From: a bacterium
GTDB lineage: Bacteria; Patescibacteriota; Minisyncoccia; Phycocordibacterales; CAIZLB01
DNA: 31,477 nt
Direction: 5' to 3'
Assembly: GCA_043738715.1 (NCBI GenBank)
Contig: JAYUFM010000097.1
Coordinates: forward strand, 1-31,477
The number at the start of each line of letters is the position of its first letter. Within the stretch, counting starts at the first letter, position 1. Position numbers and translations under genes: made by a program. This document shows, piece by piece, positions 8,360-30,892 of the stretch. The notes beneath the pieces were generated by a model. The model searched no databases. It saw nothing but the letters and a program-made list of their open reading frames with translations, and was not told the DNA's origin.

Positions 8360-9031
8360 ATGTCAAACGAAATTAAACTTGTTATAGGAATTATTATTGT
8401 ATCTATTGGGGTAACGTTTTTAGGTCTAAAATTAGCATATAGAGCCCCACAAGAGGCAAAATTACTATTATCTGCTGACCGCATTGATAATGCTGAAAGT
8501 CCACGACTTAAAGGGGCTAGCTCGACTATTTCAATAGTAGAATTCGCAGATTTTGAATGCCCTGCATGTGGAGCAATGCATCCGATATTTAAGCAGCTAT
8601 TAAAAGCTTACGGTAATAAAATCACTTTTGTTTATCGAAACTTCCCTATTCACGAAAACGCTGACCAGTTCGCTATCGCTGCTCTTGCTGCAGGAAAACA
8701 GAATAAATTCTGGGAAATGCACGATATGATGTTTGAAGGTCAATCAGAATGGTCAGATATATCATTTGACAAACAAATGGCTATATTTGCAGGATATGCT
8801 CAAAAATTAGGATTAGATATGAAAAAGTATCAGGCAGATCTTGCAGATAAACATCTAGCAGATATGGTAAAGAAAGACAAAGAGGATGCATTTGCTATGG
8901 GAATCAATGCCACACCTACAATCATTATTAACAATAACCGAGTAATTGTTGGTGGTAAAAATTACGCTGATTTAATAAAGATGATAGACGAAGAAATTGC
9001 TAAGGGTCCCCAGGTTGCTCCGAATAAATAA
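8360..9031 (+). CDS. DsbA-family thioredoxin-fold disulfide oxidoreductase, membrane-anchored
   Basis: EFADFECPAC CxxC, VYRNFPI, FWEMHD and GINATPT cis-Pro loop. Confidence 0.9.
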   Translation: MSNEIKLVIGIIIVSIGVTFLGLKLAYRAPQEAKLLLSADRIDNAESPRLKGASSTISIVEFADFECPACGAMHPIFKQLLKAYGNKITFVYRNFPIHENADQFAIAALAAGKQNKFWEMHDMMFEGQSEWSDISFDKQMAIFAGYAQKLGLDMKKYQADLADKHLADMVKKDKEDAFAMGINATPTIIINNNRVIVGGKNYADLIKMIDEEIAKGPQVAPNK

Positions 9032-9033
9032 GT

Positions 9034-9160
9034 CGGCTTCAAACGAAAAGATCCCGAGAGAACGGAATAGCCCCCTTAAAGAAATTTAAAAGGGGGGCTT
9101 TCCCTTGGCTCAACCCTTCGGGTTTCCGCCAGATCTCTCTTGATCTTTTGTTTTTCGCCG
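9034..9160 (-). repeat. Structured repeat element, copy A
   Basis: Reverse complement aligns with copies B and C; nested stems CGGC/GCCG, AAAAGATC/GATCTTTT and AACCC-GAA-GGGTT. Confidence 0.85.
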
Positions 9161-9177
9161 TAAGTATTCCAAAGTGT

Positions 9178-9321
9178 AGCTGGAAAAGTAAAAAGCCAGA
9201 GAGACTCGACGGAAGACCGTAAGGTCTGAGTCGGAGGAAAGTTTTTTTTAAAAGGTTTTTCCTTTAAAAAACTATTCCGCTCTCTCTGGCTTTTTAACTT
9301 TGGAGGCTCTGTGCCACAAAC
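9178..9321 (+). repeat. Structured repeat element, copy B, with 3' tail CTGTGCCACAAAC
   Basis: AAAAAGCCAGAGAGA/TCTCTCTGGCTTTTT stem, GAC-GGA-AGACC-GTAA-GGTCT-GA-GTC arm, GGA...TTCC-closed variable hairpin. Confidence 0.85.
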
Positions 9322-9336
9322 TATATTTAATATAAC

Positions 9337-11094
9337 CTAATGCGAAGCCACATCACTTTCCGACAACATACTATCAGTAACAATAGGGGCGGCTTCATTG
9401 CTAGCCTTTTTGTTTTCTGGTGCAACAACAACACCTGATCCGGCGAAGAATGGGATACGTTTTTTAAATGAACCCCACACTTCAATCACTTCTTCATTGC
9501 GAAGGAGAAACAGAACACCAGCCCAAGATGCAATCCCGACTACCCCACCTAATAGCCCGTGGATAAAGACACTGAAAACTTTTGTCTGATCGATAAATGG
9601 TTCAGCGAGGTTTAAAGTTATATACGCCATAAAACCTGCAATTACTGCTGACTCAAAACTTTGCCATAATGTTCGTCCAACATTTTTTGTAAACATTCCT
9701 TCTCCGAAATCTTTTTCAAAGACTATCCAGAAAATAATCATGTTAATAACTGTTCCTAACATGTAACCTAATGGCAACATTAAAACTTCCGTACCTGGAA
9801 TTCCTGAGACACGGAACAACCTCTCTACACCTTGTGCAAATGCAGGACTAGTTGCAAATAATTGCAAAAATAAATAAGGTAATGTGATAGTTAATACTGA
9901 CGAAAATAGATTGATAAATAAGGGTTTTATCGTCCTCCCAGCGGCATAATAAGCTCGGATAAATAATAATTCGAGGCTCTGCGCGGATAATGAAATAACA
10001 AACAGTGCGACTGATGCAGCTGTTAATCTTGTATCGTTCCAATTAAATGAACCCGATCCTAGAATTACACGAACAATTTGCGCACGCAAAATAATAAATA
10101 ACGCTGTGATTGGCAAAGACCAAAATAAAATGTGCCTTGTGGCGACTTGAACATGTTCAACGAATTCTTTTTTCTTCCCATTCACATAACACATTGATAA
10201 TAATGGAAATGCAGCTAAAGTGTAAGACACCCCAACAATTGCAAATGGAACTGACTGAAGGTTCGTCGCTAAACTAAAAATTGAAATCGAACCAGCCGTC
10301 AAAACCGAAGCAAACGATGTGATAAAAATAAGTTCAAGCTGACTGGCTGACAAAGTAATTGTGCGTGGAATTGATAGTGTCAGTATTTTAAGAAGTCTTT
10401 TGAAATCCCATTTGAAAGTAAAACGTGGCAATTGTCCCAGTGATCCTACATAAGGTGCCTGAACTGCGAAATGGAGAACTGCACCAAATACAACACCTGC
10501 AACAATTCCTTGCAAACCAAATTTTGGATATAAAAATACCGTTCCAAATATTATAGATAAGTTATAGAAAATTGGTGCAATAGCATAAATAAAAAACCTT
10601 TTGTTCATCTGTGTAATAACAGACAATAGGTTTGAAACACCTAAAAAGATTGGCTGTAATAATAAAATCCTCGACATTGATATTACTGTATTGATTTCTG
10701 ACACACCAAATCCCGGAAATAAATAATGCGCAATTTTAGGCATCAAGAAAAATAAAATAGTAGACACAACTGCCATCAAGCTAAGAAAGAAAGAAAACAG
10801 CTCGCTCATTAATTTTTTTACAGCTTCGCTACCCTTCTCGCTTGTTGCACTAAAAAATGGAATTAAAACTGCAACAGAAACAAGTGAAGCCAGTGTTGCA
10901 AACACAAAATCTGGTACTCGAAAAGATGCATAATAAAGATCAAGGGTAGGTCCAGCACCAAAAGAATTAGCTAACAATCTGTCTCGGAACAAGGCAAGTA
11001 TCTGCGACATCAAAGTAAAAAAACCGATCAAATACGCAGCGTGGTGGATTCCTGCTATCTCTTTCGAGACAAATTGAACAAGCTTTTTAACCAT
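9337..11094 (-). CDS. murJ: Lipid II flippase MurJ (MviN)
   Basis: LALFRDRLLANSFGAG..LDLYYASFRVPDF motif and many TM helices; start reassigned to MVKKLV (11094). Confidence 0.93.
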   Translation of the reverse strand: MVKKLVQFVSKEIAGIHHAAYLIGFFTLMSQILALFRDRLLANSFGAGPTLDLYYASFRVPDFVFATLASLVSVAVLIPFFSATSEKGSEAVKKLMSELFSFFLSLMAVVSTILFFLMPKIAHYLFPGFGVSEINTVISMSRILLLQPIFLGVSNLLSVITQMNKRFFIYAIAPIFYNLSIIFGTVFLYPKFGLQGIVAGVVFGAVLHFAVQAPYVGSLGQLPRFTFKWDFKRLLKILTLSIPRTITLSASQLELIFITSFASVLTAGSISIFSLATNLQSVPFAIVGVSYTLAAFPLLSMCYVNGKKKEFVEHVQVATRHILFWSLPITALFIILRAQIVRVILGSGSFNWNDTRLTAASVALFVISLSAQSLELLFIRAYYAAGRTIKPLFINLFSSVLTITLPYLFLQLFATSPAFAQGVERLFRVSGIPGTEVLMLPLGYMLGTVINMIIFWIVFEKDFGEGMFTKNVGRTLWQSFESAVIAGFMAYITLNLAEPFIDQTKVFSVFIHGLLGGVVGIASWAGVLFLLRNEEVIEVWGSFKKRIPFFAGSGVVVAPENKKASNEAAPIVTDSMLSESDVASH

Positions 11095-11122
11095 ATAATA
11101 TAAGAGTATATCGCAAAAACAA

Positions 11123-11151
11123 TAGACCCACAATGGTTTTTGTGTTATATT
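11123..11151 (+). promoter_or_regulatory. Putative rnpB promoter
   Basis: TAGACC-17-TATATT with extended TG, 7 nt before P1. Confidence 0.5.
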
Positions 11152-11157
11152 CACACC

Positions 11158-11568
11158 GGTTTTGCATCAGACAGTCGCCAATATGCACTTCGGTACATAT
11201 TGGAGGAAAGTCCGAACACTTTTTGTTGGGCTCGCACAAGCAGATCACATCCGTGATGTTCTAAAGCGAGCCCAACAAAAACAGGTAGCGGGTAACGCCC
11301 GTCCGGAGCAATCCGCGAGATGCGAGCAGTGACGTGTACATTCGAAAGTTTGTACAGTTCGACTTCGGTCGAATAATTCCACGATATATTGAAAGTGGAA
11401 GTGAAACGGCAAAACTCTTACCCGAGTGCAAGGCCGCGCTCAACAATATTTTCGAATAATGTTAGAGAGAGCCGCTCGAGTCCAACAGCAATGTTGGTCC
11501 CAGATAAATGACTGTCACCTTTCGGATCAAACCTTAAGGAACAGAATTCGGCTTATAGATGCAAAACC
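11158..11568 (+). ncRNA. rnpB: RNase P RNA
   Basis: GAGGAAAGTCC (11203-11213), ACAGAATTCGGCTTA (11541-11555), P1 GGTTTTGCATC/GATGCAAAACC, AGTGAAACGGCAAAACTC core. Confidence 0.96.
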
Positions 11569-11572
11569 AATT

Positions 11573-11605
11573 GAAAAACCCACAGCGATGTGGGTTTTTC
11601 TTTTT
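11573..11605 (+). terminator. rnpB terminator
   Basis: GAAAAACCCACA/TGTGGGTTTTTC stem followed by Ts. Confidence 0.85.
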
Positions 11606-11637
11606 ATAAAATATTTTTGATGCAAATTTTATATAAA

Positions 11638-11679
11638 CAAAAAAAACAAAAGCCTGGGGAAGCATGCGCAACCCCAGGC
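11638..11679 (-). terminator. Terminator of the 11718-12227 ORF
   Basis: GCCTGGGG/CCCCAGGC stem with a minus-strand T tract. Confidence 0.75.
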
Positions 11680-11717
11680 CCTTTCGTTTCAATTGATTTA
11701 ATCCCAACCTGGGTGTC

Positions 11718-12227
11718 CTACCCCACTCCTGCTGTGGCCCGGAGGACTTCTGCGTGCTGCAAGTCCTTGTCTTTGTGCCTACGGGCATCGAGGCATGCAA
11801 ACAGATGTGCTTCGGTGTAAACAGGGATGAAGACTCCCAGCACATGAGCACTGCATTCCTTTGCGATAAGGCTTGTGACACGAGCCAACCCTTTGACTGG
11901 AGCCTGCGTCACAATGGAGCCGTGGTCTGGGTCTCTCGTGCTCAACACGACAACGTCGCCTGCCCGTACGCAGAGATGTCCCTCATTCGCAAAGACGCCA
12001 TCCCTCAGTGCAAGTAACGCGATGACGCGCCCATAGCCCGCAGGCTTATGTTTGAGACCCATGATGAGCCCACCCCGCTGGATTTTGTTCACGTCTCGCA
12101 TCAGTTCTTGGTGGTGCACGCTTTTTTGATGCGCCTCATCCGGAGCCATCAAGGCCATGAGCCCTTCAGTATCTCCGACGATTTGGGCATAGTTCGCCCA
12201 GAAGTTACGCCATTCTCTCTCGTTCAT
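11718..12227 (-). CDS. Orphan hypothetical protein, 169 aa
   Basis: ATG after an A/C-rich leader, GC-richer than its flanks, own terminator. Confidence 0.65.
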   Translation of the reverse strand: MNEREWRNFWANYAQIVGDTEGLMALMAPDEAHQKSVHHQELMRDVNKIQRGGLIMGLKHKPAGYGRVIALLALRDGVFANEGHLCVRAGDVVVLSTRDPDHGSIVTQAPVKGLARVTSLIAKECSAHVLGVFIPVYTEAHLFACLDARRHKDKDLQHAEVLRATAGVG

Positions 12228-12338
12228 GATTCTTTTTTTGTTTTTTGTATGGTCATTTCTGACCAGGTTTGTTCATTTACTCAAAAACATACTACTTCAT
12301 CTGTCAATAAACACAATTCAACTCAACATTCAATCTTT

Positions 12339-12535
12339 CGGCGGAGAACAAAAGGTCTAGAGATATCTGACGGAGGAAACCGTAAGGTTTCCGAGTCAAA
12401 GGAAAAGTCCTTCATTTTGAGTTTTCAAATGAAGGACTTATTCCGGTATCTATAGAACTTTTCGTTCGTAGCCATTCTCTCTGGCTTTTTAACTTTGTAG
12501 GCGCTGTGCCACTAAACCTTTTCGTTCGTAGCCGC
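12339..12535 (+). repeat. Structured repeat element copy C (12339-12473), a B-type 3' fragment (12474-12517) and a duplicated copy-C end (12518-12535)
   Basis: GAC-GGA-GGAAACC-GTAA-GGTTTCC-GA-GTC arm; 16-bp direct repeat CTTTTCGTTCGTAGCC at 12458 and 12518. Confidence 0.85.
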
Positions 12536-14638
12536 CTACTTAACCGCCTCTACCTTTGCACTAATCACCGCAAGGTCTTCGATTTCACAATTACCACCAG
12601 CACATGCCAACTCTTTCTTTACATCTGTATTATCTGTCTTTTCGTAAATAACAATCTTTGAGAAATCTAAACCTTCGTATTTTCTCATCAACTCAACATA
12701 AGTCTTTTCATCACATTCCTCATAAGGAGCTAATTGATACACATGATTTGATCGAGGTAGGAATGAAAGACCACCAGAGATATCCCAGTTCTGGTAAATC
12801 CAGTTACCTACTTCTAACCATTCATCGTCTCCAACTGAAATTGTGACTGATGGATTGTGTTCTGTGAAATTTTCTTTAACCATTTTCCAGAATACCAATT
12901 GTTCAATTGCACTCATGTCATCCTTGAAAATTGATCCCTTAGGAGCCTTAACAGGGAAATCAATTACGAAAGTCGTAGCGTTTTCAACAGTCTGACCAAC
13001 TTCTGGATGATATGGAACACCTTGATCCTTCATCATTTGGAACAATGCATCATTCGCAGAGATTCTCACACGTCGGATATAGAACTGTGAATGTCTTGGG
13101 TGCATACCTGATGAACAATCTACAGTCTGCGAAAGGTTACCTGATGGCTTAACACATGTAATCGCAGTCGAAGCATTAACACCGAATCGCTTTGCATACA
13201 ATTTATTTACACGAATGGCTTCGTCACGTAGTTTTCTCAAAACCTCAGGCTTTCGAACTTCTGGACAATCCCACATACCTGTAATTGATACACCCAAAAG
13301 TCTTTCTTCCATACAGTTCTTTTTCCATTCTGGTGAAAGATAGATGAAATCAGTAAATGTTGATTGATAAGTTCCTAAAATAGTAGCGACCTTTATCTTT
13401 CTCATAAGGTCTGCCAATTTGTCTTCATGTCGCGCAACAACCTCTGAAAGGTTACAGAACTGCTTTGGACGCAAAATAATTTCTCCACATGGATTAGTTC
13501 CAAATCGGTGCATCCAAGCCTTTGAAACAGCAAGACGTCTTGCAGGAAGAGTCTTTGCAAGGCAACCTCGGTTGAAAATACCTCTTTCTCCTGACTTACT
13601 CTTTATAAGGGCTGTCCATTCATCTAGGAACTCAGTTAATTCCGGCTTTTCATTGTATACAGCGGAATTATTTGAAAGTGATCGCTGTGGCTCGTTAATC
13701 CAGAACTGGCCTTTCTTTGCATCACGGATCTGGTCATCTTGTAGATCAGACAATGAAATAAGGGCTGTTCGGCGAACACCTCCTGAAACTACACCTTCAC
13801 CGATTTTACAAACAATATCGTGAACATCCAGGTTGGAAAGGTGCTTACCTTGTTTCGAAAGAATCTTTGAACGAGAAAAATTATGAATATCAACTAGAGG
13901 GGCAGGACCCGACGATCTACCACCTGTTGTCTTTAATCTTGCGCCAGCAGGTCGAAGCAATGAATAATCAAATTCCACATCATCACCTTCAAACCAATGT
14001 TTCAAACCGATTGCTAATGAATCTGACCAACCCTCTCTTGAATCTGGAATAACAAATTTATGTTTTTTACCAGTTTGGAATTTAATTTGAGGAAGTGACT
14101 GACTGTTATAACTTTCTGCAGAAAATCCAACACCACATCCTGACATTGAAAGAAACATAATTTCAGCAAAGTCCTGATATGTTTCAGGTGCAGTAAATGA
14201 ACAATTATAAGTTGAAGCGTGATTTCGTCGAAGTGCTTCACCAGAAAATTGTAGCGCACGCATTGATGGCATTGATTCGTGCATCAAGATTGATTTGCGA
14301 ACTTCAGAATATTCTTTTTCTGTTAGTTTATTTCCCAATCTTTCTTTCATGAAGTTAACATAACGGTCTACCGTTTCAACCCATGTCTCTCGACGAGATT
14401 CTTCTTCTATCCATCGTGAGTACGTTCTATAGTAAATAAATTCACCTAATGGATTTCGGAAACTCTTTTTTGATTCTGCAGCAAGTTTTTTTACATTTTC
14501 AGGAACAGCAATGTCTCTTTTTACACGTTCTTTATTTCTAGCAGCTCGGTACAAAATATATTCTTTCGCAGTTTTTACATATTCAGATAAAATTAATTGT
14601 TTTTCTACAATATCCTGAATTCCTTCAACGTCAGGCAT
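12536..14638 (-). CDS. nrdJ: Class II (adenosylcobalamin-dependent) ribonucleotide reductase, catalytic part
   Basis: YYRTYSRW..RRETW.ETVDRY, NCSF, GGVRRTALISL, TNPCGEI, TCVKPSG and C-terminal CAGGNC motifs. Confidence 0.92.
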   Translation of the reverse strand: MPDVEGIQDIVEKQLILSEYVKTAKEYILYRAARNKERVKRDIAVPENVKKLAAESKKSFRNPLGEFIYYRTYSRWIEEESRRETWVETVDRYVNFMKERLGNKLTEKEYSEVRKSILMHESMPSMRALQFSGEALRRNHASTYNCSFTAPETYQDFAEIMFLSMSGCGVGFSAESYNSQSLPQIKFQTGKKHKFVIPDSREGWSDSLAIGLKHWFEGDDVEFDYSLLRPAGARLKTTGGRSSGPAPLVDIHNFSRSKILSKQGKHLSNLDVHDIVCKIGEGVVSGGVRRTALISLSDLQDDQIRDAKKGQFWINEPQRSLSNNSAVYNEKPELTEFLDEWTALIKSKSGERGIFNRGCLAKTLPARRLAVSKAWMHRFGTNPCGEIILRPKQFCNLSEVVARHEDKLADLMRKIKVATILGTYQSTFTDFIYLSPEWKKNCMEERLLGVSITGMWDCPEVRKPEVLRKLRDEAIRVNKLYAKRFGVNASTAITCVKPSGNLSQTVDCSSGMHPRHSQFYIRRVRISANDALFQMMKDQGVPYHPEVGQTVENATTFVIDFPVKAPKGSIFKDDMSAIEQLVFWKMVKENFTEHNPSVTISVGDDEWLEVGNWIYQNWDISGGLSFLPRSNHVYQLAPYEECDEKTYVELMRKYEGLDFSKIVIYEKTDNTDVKKELACAGGNCEIEDLAVISAKVEAVK

Positions 14639-27920: not shown

Positions 27921-28005
27921 GCTCGGGTGGTGAAATGGTAGACACGGAGGACTTAAAATCCTCTGACCTTTAAAAGTCGTGTGGGTTCGAGTCCCACCCC
28001 GAGCA
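27921..28005 (+). tRNA. tRNA-Leu (TAA)
   Basis: Acceptor stem GCTCGGG/CCCGAGC, anticodon arm GAGGA-CTTAAAA-TCCTC, long variable arm. Confidence 0.96.
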
Positions 28006-28085
28006 CAACGCAGTGAGATAGACTGATATGGCTCAACAAGGTCATTTTATGGAAAAATAAATGACCGAAGTAGGGCGACCGAGAT

Positions 28086-28119
28086 GGTTCGAGTATCATT
28101 TCGGGCACAACGCAGTGAG
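28086..28119 (+). repeat. Degenerate direct repeat of the tRNA-Leu 3' end and trailer (att-like scar)
   Basis: 28 of 34 nt identical to 27984-28017 by manual alignment. Confidence 0.75.
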
Positions 28120-28160
28120 GCCTACTGGGAGGGCAGAATAGAAACCTATTTCGATATGTT

Positions 28161-29572: not shown

Positions 29573-30892
29573 TCACCCCACAATACCCATCTTCTTCCCC
29601 GTCAGCGTGACCCTGCTTTTAAGGCAAGTCAACATCTCCCTCTTCTCCACCATCGTTCCCCCTCTCAATACATATTTCGCATAATTGCGAATATCAATGT
29701 CACTCGTCTTTATTGTGTTAGGCTTCTCACCTAAGAGCCCCGACTGAAACTTTCTGTGTCGATCAATCTCATCCTTAATCTTCTGCTTCATTCCAATCTC
29801 GTCAAGATCAATTGTGTCGATGAGCAGGGTCAATTGTTCAACCAAGTCTTCTTCTCGTATGTATCCTGATTTGCAAGTATGGTCTTTGTGTCTAGAACAT
29901 CCATAGTAGACGTAACGGTGAACATTGCCATTCTTCTGACTTTTGAACTTCTCGTCAGCGGTTATCCCTGATCCACATAATCCACATGTCATGAGCTTGG
30001 TGAAGGCAAACTCCTTGCCATAGTTTTTCATTGAATGCTCGGATATGTTCTTCTGCACCTCGTCGAAGAGTTCCTTGGTGATTATCGGTATATGCCTGCC
30101 TGTATACCATTGCCCACCACCTTTGGGGTATTCAAAGGTGCCATAGTAGAAATGGCAACGTAGAGTGAGATATATATTACTGAGATTCAGTGGTTTACCG
30201 TTTTTGGTAGTGAATTTGATTTCGTCCTTTAGCCATTTATGTACCCGTCTACCTGAATATTTCTCATATGCCACTTTCTCAAACATTTTCTTGATAATTG
30301 GTGCTCTATGGGTATCTACATGTACCTGACATCTTTCATCCTTGTTCTTGCTGTTTAAGTATCCAACAGGAGCGGGTGCAGGCCAGAGGCCCATCTCGCA
30401 TCTAGCACGAAGGCCTCGTTTGACATTGATGACCTTGTTGTCGTTTTCGAGTTTGGCTTGACTGCCTAATATCATGAGGAGAAACTTCTCATTGGGGTTG
30501 TTACTGAATTTCTGTCCTCCGTAGGTGCGGATTTCCTTGAGTAATCCTTGGTCCATGAGGTCGACAATTCTACCTAAATCCCCTGCGTTTCTAGAGATAC
30601 GGTCAGGTGCCCATGTCAGTATGCCATCGAACTTCTTCTGTTTGATTTCCTCCACGATCTCATTGAAGACAGGGCGCTGGCCTGCTTCCTTGGCAGAGTG
30701 GGATTCTTTCTTCATGACTACGATATGAAGGTCTTGTTCCTTAGCCATCTTCTCCATTTCCCTCACTTGGCTATCAATCGACAAGATCTGCTTGTCTTCT
30801 TCCTCAGTCGACTTTCTGGCGTAGAGGCAGTAGCGGACTTTGGCGGTTGGTGTTTCCCTCAATCCCACAGGTTTTTGTATTGTGTATTCCAT
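29573..30892 (-). mobile_element. Large serine recombinase (resolvase + recombinase + zinc-ribbon domains)
   Basis: YCLYARKST catalytic Ser, DRISRN, APVGY, CGLCGS...YYGC...C zinc ribbon, coiled coil. Confidence 0.9.

Follow-up and report, generated by a model that had tools for sequence, protein, structure and literature searches.

A structured module of about 95 nucleotides, probably mobile, at the tips of terminator hairpins in Patescibacteria

We found that a three-way-junction core of about 95 nt recurs in genomes of the Patescibacteria, where it is probably a non-autonomous mobile DNA module with the apex of terminator hairpins as its usual home. The element behaves like a mobile structured module and not like a fixed RNA gene. 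Patescibacteria genomes are tiny and tightly packed and are thought to be poor in selfish DNA, and to our knowledge their non-coding content is almost unexplored. The three-armed module is apparently undescribed. The sequence-only reading of this DNA had recognised no named family in it, which agrees with our searches of Rfam 15: at the gathering score the whole window returned only an RNase P RNA and four tRNAs, and with E up to 10 positions 8800-12700 gave nothing relevant on the three copies located there. No description of the element was found in the literature searched.

The window, by which we mean the whole stretch of 31,477 nt under analysis, contains three copies, A, B and C, whose coordinates and neighbouring genes are given in Table 1.

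Table 1. Features around copies A, B and C in the window (R1 and R2 are the covariance models described in the text)
Feature	Positions	Strand	Description
DsbA-like thioredoxin-fold gene	8360..9031	+	Pfam Thioredoxin_4 6e-25, DSBA 1.5e-14
dsbA-like/murJ spacer, stop codon to stop codon	9032..9336		A + 17 nt + B + tail; 305 nt
Copy A	9034..9160	-	class-1; antisense to dsbA; R1 112 bits, R2 91 bits
Linker between A and B	9161..9177		17 nt; 5' ends of A and B face each other
Copy B	9174..9317	+	class-1 with 3' tail; antisense to murJ; R1 122 bits
Core of B, conserved and putatively mobile unit	9203..9287	+	closing helix GAGAGA/UCUCUC, arm 1, arm 2, junction
murJ	9337..11154	-	Pfam MurJ 2.8e-64; orthologues 79-90% identical in G001-G004
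Copy C	12339..12473	+	class-1; antisense to nrdJ; R1 123 bits
Stub, B-type 3' half with tail	12474..12517	+	directly after C; 93-95% identical to 9281-9320
Repeat of the 16-nt 3' end of C	12518..12535	+	second copy; abuts nrdJ stop codon 12536-12538
Class II ribonucleotide reductase gene (nrdJ)	12536..14638	-	Pfam RNR_Alpha, RNR-II_ins_dom, ATP-cone

The three copies share one fold, present in the sequence in every detail that had been described, which consists of an outer stem, a 3x3 purine internal loop (GAA/GAA in A, GGA/GGA in B and GGA/GUA in C), a single bulged base in the 3' arm, and a long stem that leads into a three-way junction. Arm 1 runs GAC-GGA, a stem with a GAA or GUAA loop, and GA-GUC, while arm 2 is formed by GGAAA, a variable hairpin, and U-A-UUCC. 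The minimum free energies of A, B and C are -60.4, -59.0 and -62.6 kcal/mol (z-scores -5.2, -6.6 and -7.3), values as low being reached by none of 200 shuffled sequences, and each copy is 5-8 kcal/mol more stable than its complement. The fixed stem of copy A reads GCG-RAR-AACAAAAG.. / ..CUUUUCGUU-YGN-AGC, and the outer stem of copy B is terminator-like (AAAAAGCC / GGCUUUUU). It was also borne out that A lies just past the dsbA stop codon, from which its 3' end is 2-4 nt away, and that A and B form an inverted pair 17 nt apart; copy B in turn precedes the stop codon of murJ. The extent of B had been given as 9178-9308, and the element is probably slightly longer (9174-9317 in our delimitation), since the tail of B recurs in the stub behind copy C. 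Copy C is 96% identical to the copy at C6:1584-1716, and the repeat that follows the stub pairs with the 5' end of C better than does C's own 3' end.

Elsewhere in the window, the RNase P RNA (bacterial class A, positions 11159-11571, + strand) scores 100.3 bits against an Rfam threshold of 100, with unaligned inserts of 67 and 93 nt replacing model segments, and may be a divergent Patescibacteria form. Directly 3' of its gene is a plain, perfect 12-bp bidirectional terminator-like hairpin (11573-11600), an example of the native hairpin style that the cores would insert into. At the tRNA gene at 27921-28005, the 3' part with about 25 nt of downstream sequence (27984-28032) is repeated with 73% identity at 28086-28134, about 100 nt on, as if a short segment had inserted behind the tRNA gene, with a direct repeat of the tRNA tail marking its boundary.

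BLAST and a pattern search of the assembly to which the window belongs (G000: 826 kb in 169 contigs, 79% complete, Parcubacteria-type) revealed many additional copies, and covariance model R1 was built from 16 of its copies; a broader model, R2, was built from 46 copies. The conserved unit is the core of about 95 nt, in which sequence conservation is concentrated around the junction, with whole elements forming three-way junctions of 105-135 nt. The closing helix is typically GAGAG/CUCUC, arm 1 is UGAC-GGA...GA-GUCA with an internal purine loop CGGA/GAG, and arm 2 is GGAAA...U-A-UUCC with a bulged A. Away from the junction, the helices and loops of the two arms vary by subfamily, but pairing is maintained, and the GNRA caps change from GUAA to GUGA. 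Over the 46 copies, 95.3% of the cells in the model pairs are paired, compared with 68.3% in shuffled sequences and 45-56% when the partners are slid, and changes on both sides occur at 33 of the 37 pairs, a level matched by none of 500 shuffles. The view that structure rather than sequence is conserved therefore has to be divided: it is right for the arms, and wrong for the junction-proximal core, which is strongly conserved in sequence. The covariation noted earlier is likewise real in the core helices, as judged by the 46 copies against shuffles, but much of the change in the outer stems is not compensatory evolution, because the core is lodged in the terminator hairpins that belong to different genes. 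A hammerhead-like reading of CUGACGGA...GAGUCA was dropped, as covariation backs the UGAC/GUCA helix instead, and an origin from 5S rRNA has no support in Rfam.

The fold is specific to one strand. In 44 of the 46 copies the model strand is the more stable one, the mean difference without special-loop bonuses being -7.5 kcal/mol, and G-U pairs number 114 on this strand and 37 on the complement; within the model pairs there are 55 G-U and only 13 A-C combinations. This asymmetry is found whichever way a copy is oriented to its neighbours, and so it belongs to the element itself and does not stem from mutation linked to transcription.

The covariance models R1 and R2 find 18 full copies on 13 contigs of G000, well beyond what chance would give and amounting to about 0.3% of the assembly, in addition to four truncated stubs; no further pieces were seen at the contig ends of G000. 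All the genomes compared are metagenome bins, and the E-values of the custom models R1 and R2 are rough. Three genomes from the same genus have no copy and one has a single copy. Within the same family (f1), 14 of the 49 other genomes carry 1-6 copies, and 1-6 copies are likewise found in eight of the 40 other families of the order, each taken as a single representative; G000, G013, G036 and G216 are the high-copy members. Altogether, copies were found in 30 other genomes among approximately 107 of the order, giving about 60 copies in 31 genomes with model scores up to 124 bits, and none in 39 genomes from other orders of the class. In a pattern scan of 185,579 species genomes true matches occurred only in records of the Candidatus Parcubacteria / Patescibacteria group, no true copy was present among viral contigs, phage records and plasmid records, and a scan of JGI metagenomes gave just four exact-core matches. 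From these counts across genus, family, order and class we conclude that the family is lineage-restricted and patchy, with a burst in G000.

The strongest evidence for what moves comes from comparing outer stems. Besides the class-1 copies described below there is a second class, in which each copy has its own unique, near-perfect outer stem, whose 5' arm is rich in A and whose 3' arm is rich in T. Two cores, at C149 and C59, are 97% and 94% identical to that of B and sit in unrelated stems, the identity of the three ending at the closing helix on both sides. Such near-identical cores in unrelated stems rule out slow compensatory evolution as the cause of the differences. An intrinsic terminator is defined by a G+C-containing stem followed by a T tract at the 3' end of a gene, and this is what both the class-2 outer stems and their plain orthologues look like, the core itself being extra to that definition; G000 also contains 33 or more plain hairpins, perfectly paired, in this A-rich/T-rich style. 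We regard the outer stems as the genes' own bidirectional intrinsic terminators.

Three orthologous sites show the core present and absent. At the C53 locus the orthologous stop codon in G004, the closest relative, is followed immediately by a plain 19-bp terminator hairpin bearing an A tract and a T tract, and G000 has the same stem base and flanks, both clearly orthologous, with a core of about 95 nt replacing the apex. At the C123 locus short plain terminators in G002, G003 and G004 correspond to stem plus core in G000. The C116 locus has a plain 17-bp terminator in G002 and G004, a longer hairpin with a small apex in G003, and an orthologous outer stem in G000 and G001, in which the cores point in opposite directions (+ in G000, - in G001) despite collinear flanking genes. 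A copy is also present at this locus in G017, from another genus, which suggests that some of the plain terminators at C116 arose through loss of the core; gain and loss at each locus were assigned by parsimony over few species. Together, the three comparisons indicate that the unit gained, lost and flipped is the core, with the tip of a terminator as its usual seat. Among the empty sites that we examined, a hairpin of any kind is lacking at three, namely dsbA-murJ, the YceG locus and tRNA-Thr/tuf.

At C123 the right palindrome arm in G000 holds an inverted copy of the left-flank sequence (CAUCAAC / GUUGAUG; L100:1500-1640). The left-flank sequence is conserved in all five genomes, and the other four have no counterpart on the right side (L193-L196), which points to copying of one arm from the other at the level of DNA. 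Palindromes in these genomes seem to grow by such arm-from-arm copying. In G002 (L214:1650-1790) and G004 (L211:1415-1556) the intergenic region with the plain terminator is identical over about 138 shared nt; the murJ proteins of these two genomes are 83% and 90% identical to that of G000, and the identical region may reflect a recent exchange.

The second mode of movement concerns the class-1 copies, of which G000 has 8-9, including A, B and C. Eight copies have common ends, with GCG, a purine loop and AACAAAAG on the left and the complementary CUUUUCGUU, a loop and AGC on the right, and a related stem of terminator type is found in copy B and one further copy. The ends often read GUAGC beside stop codons, a sequence confined to some of the class-1 3' ends. 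A class-1 core, together with the fixed stem it has captured, inserts in G000 in units of about 130 nt, both beside stop codons and within other copies, which has given the burst of 18 copies. The clearest case is the C108a locus, which is contiguous in three sister genomes, whereas in G000 133 nt have been cleanly inserted next to the resident terminator, which is still intact. Direct repeats of at least 3 nt are absent from this filled/empty pair, and the lack of a target-site duplication gives no support to classical transposition. In two genomes of the same genus, G002 and G003, the dsbA and murJ stop codons are 3-5 nt apart, from which it follows that all 305 nt of the spacer were inserted in G000. 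Both sites uphold the earlier suggestion of an insertional, non-autonomous repeat. The filled dsbA-murJ form is independently present in Logan contigs of the source runs, and the contigs of the source metagenome, which break at repeats, showed no empty allele.

Nesting is seen at several places. Both at C6 and at C140 a 5' stub of a B-type element is directly upstream of a full C-type copy, and a duplicated 3' end like the one behind copy C also occurs at C108b (C108:9602-9617). Two of the odd nested junctions, including that between C and its stub, were found in Logan assemblies as well (with a loose end at 9281), and since these assemblies are independent the junctions are not bin artefacts.

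The orientation and persistence of the copies bear on the main alternative, namely that the element is an RNA module useful to the host, in which the junction caps the terminator, for instance by binding a protein or RNase and thereby governing stability or 3'-end processing, or acts as a one-way block to transcription entering the gene from its 3' side, with spread being secondary. We consider this unlikely, although of the alternatives it carries the most weight. The conserved junction nucleotides, the GNRA caps, the tandem G-A loops and the bulged A are typical of RNA-protein sites, and G-U pairs are tolerated on a single strand only. For co-directional neighbours in G000 the folding strand is antisense in 7 of 8 contexts, and in f1 it is antisense at about 15 of 17 loci, with each orthologous set taken as one. 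The three adjacent pairs (A/B, C140:642-957 and locus L030) all have their 5' ends towards each other, which places the 3' end of each copy towards its own gene. As the core flips in place, this bias must be kept by selection or by a process specific to the lineage. Outside f1, however, the bias is gone (4 antisense, 5 sense), and the folding strand is usually absent from the mRNA of the neighbouring gene and has no evident promoter of its own.

Persistence can be followed at the tRNA-Thr/tuf site of genus g5, which is filled in three species, occupied by a degenerate remnant in one, and empty in seven, where the tuf promoter follows the tRNA without a hairpin. Two of the filled copies are clearly vertical, with fully compensated changes in the arms and stem, and the third has an unrelated outer stem. 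Such orthologous copies, persisting across species of one genus with compensated stems, together with the antisense bias in f1, hint at selection and hence at some function. Against a host-useful RNA, other orthologous sets contain decaying copies that are losing core letters, most relatives have no element at all, including three of the four genomes of the same genus, and plain terminators suffice in sister species at the same sites. Behind tRNA-Thr we also observed a different insert of about 130 nt (L142 in G204 and L143 in G195), which at L142 is closed by some 30 nt that repeat, in direct orientation, the 3' end of the tRNA and the adjoining downstream bases. Part of the insert is similar to the left stem arm of B-type elements (GAAGUAAAAGCCA vs AAAGUAAAAAGCCA), and it may belong to a second family that has parts in common with the first.

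A second alternative, which we regard as improbable, is that a dedicated recombinase or nuclease, with its gene elsewhere, acts on the element as single-stranded DNA, in the manner of REP/RAYT, IS200/605-TnpA or attC-IntI. The strand-specific fold, the extrahelical bases, the GAA and GNRA loops, the inverted pairs resembling BIMEs or REPINs, the nesting of copies in one another and the frequent GUAGC of class-1 ends beside stop codons would all suit such a substrate. On the other hand, it is the tip of the hairpin that is conserved and not the base, where attC and REP enzymes cut and MITE enzymes also act, and the stem bases differ by copy; there are no cassette arrays, and copies number tens and not hundreds. 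Nor was a partner found. Y1_Tnp (PF01797) has no match in the 79%-complete G000, where control genomes do match, and the same assembly has no match to RVT_1 (PF00078) or to the TnpB zinc ribbon (PF07282), so that the statement that no cognate enzyme lies nearby now extends to Y1/HUH, TnpB and reverse transcriptase genes in that assembly. No gene recurs beside the copies except at orthologous sites.

Two candidate enzymes were considered and rejected. Large serine recombinases are equally common in genomes without the element and missing from some carriers; G000 has three paralogues with Resolvase, Recombinase and zinc ribbon domains (window 29573-30892, - strand; C103:2514-3845; C42:13603-14931), and such genes are common in the family, with up to six per genome. 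DDE_1 (PF03184) was confined to G000 among 41 genomes, and it consists there of broken pogo-like frames on two contigs of 2-3 kb that carry no element ends and are probably contamination. Contigs C156, C23 and C16 of G000 hold broken pogo/Tc1-type DDE_1 frames that are absent from the 40 related genomes, probably a eukaryote-like contaminant.

The last alternative, that these are ordinary terminator hairpins alike by chance or composition, can be practically dismissed despite the truly terminator-like outer stems, being refuted by the covariance-model results, which show that about 60 copies, from 31 genomes, preserve both the sequence and the fold of a core of about 95 nt, and by the plain terminators that occupy the same sites without it.

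Returning to the mobile module, the consistently better folding of one strand, with its retained G-U pairs, purine loops and GNRA caps, leads us to favour a selfish module that would be recognised or processed in folded, single-stranded form. It might also spread without an enzyme of its own, and two routes can be envisaged. In the first, the core would be copied into the broken or stalled tips of hairpins through the short homology common to terminator arms, as a repair-driven conversion, and in the second an unlinked structure-specific enzyme would be responsible; flipping of the core could result from recombination between the two arms of a stem. The more specific picture, of a gene-less mobile element of a new kind that homes to the terminator apex by hairpin-tip repair or by a structure-specific enzyme that reads the junction, with the terminators serving as a dispersed landing pad, we put forward tentatively, as one that is less likely than not to be right. 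If it holds, an element homing to the apex could flip and be lost precisely, and the tip of a terminator would be a niche in which insertion could spare both the coding sequence and the hairpin base. If the spread is repair-driven, or due to a new structure-reading enzyme, a mechanism would be added to the catalogue of mobile DNA, with the junction as a handle for finding the partner.

Some consequences are more general. The presence of one module in many unrelated terminators can produce a dramatic outer-stem 'covariation' that can mislead those who search for RNA motifs. Recognising the elements is of value for annotation, as assemblies are interrupted at them and they may be taken for genes of small RNAs. 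Tiny Patescibacteria genomes can evidently support a burst of structured repeats. What is new here is the residence at the terminator apex, the inversion in place and the two modes of movement.

Among known systems, several groups resemble the element in part. Bacterial MITEs and mosaic repeats (Correia/NEMIS, ERIC/IRU, BOX, RUP and the Rickettsia RPE), which are among the subjects covered in the reviews PMC10969869 and PMC3184786, are also small, non-autonomous, structured and patchy, with single-lineage bursts and modular copies. MITEs, however, are marked by target-site duplications and by terminal inverted repeats that are conserved, whereas here no duplication was seen and the termini differ between copies, because they are the arms of the host's terminators: wholly different stems surround cores that are 94-97% identical, and common ends are confined to the 8-9 class-1 copies. 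As to a parent insertion sequence, the only DDE matches (PF03184) are those on the two small, likely contaminant contigs without element ends.

Integron attC sites share with the element a folded single strand, extrahelical bases, a variable terminal structure, a position after the stop codon and an antisense folding strand. An attC stem is conserved at its base, in the R and L boxes, and the sites form arrays next to intI, whereas the element has a variable base and a conserved tip; the boxes (RYYYAAC / GTTRRRY) are lacking, the AAC and GUU of class-1 ends being flanked by an unpaired 3x3 purine loop, and instead of forming arrays the copies are dispersed over 13 contigs beside housekeeping genes and tRNAs. 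An assignment to IS200/IS605 ends or a TnpB guide RNA finds no counterpart in the PF01797 and PF07282 searches of G000 (79% complete), and the same is true of a retron, group II intron or other retroelement RNA in the search of that assembly with PF00078. Group IIC introns are mobile elements that use the stem-loop of an intrinsic terminator as a target motif; their insertion point lies behind the hairpin, and they splice and have a reverse transcriptase gene. Terminator hairpins are thus landing marks in both cases, but the element sits at the apex, and RVT_1 was not found in its assembly.

Judged by analogy, the element is most like the REP/MITE-type intergenic structured repeats and the insertion sequences that home to REP palindromes. 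PMC1525189 and PMC3333891 describe REP/BIME sequences as intergenic hairpin repeats at the 3' ends of genes, often in inverted pairs and targets for further insertions. With the REP/BIME and REPIN sequences of proteobacteria and their RAYT the element has in common the hairpin repeats at gene 3' ends, the inverted pairs, the specificity for a single strand and the role as a target for further insertions. A REP is a simple palindrome of 20-40 nt with a GTAG/CGTC tag, hundreds of copies and a RAYT gene, whereas the element has a three-way-junction core of about 95 nt (105-135 nt as a whole), a conserved tip and a variable base, and 0-18 copies per genome, and a Y1 gene was not found. IS1397, ISKpn1 and IS621 insert specifically inside REP palindromes (PMC1525189). 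They are 1.3-1.4 kb long and their own transposase sets the target, whereas our element is gene-less and about 95 nt long and its target is a terminator hairpin, but by landing inside a pre-existing intergenic palindrome they provide the nearest precedent for homing to a hairpin.
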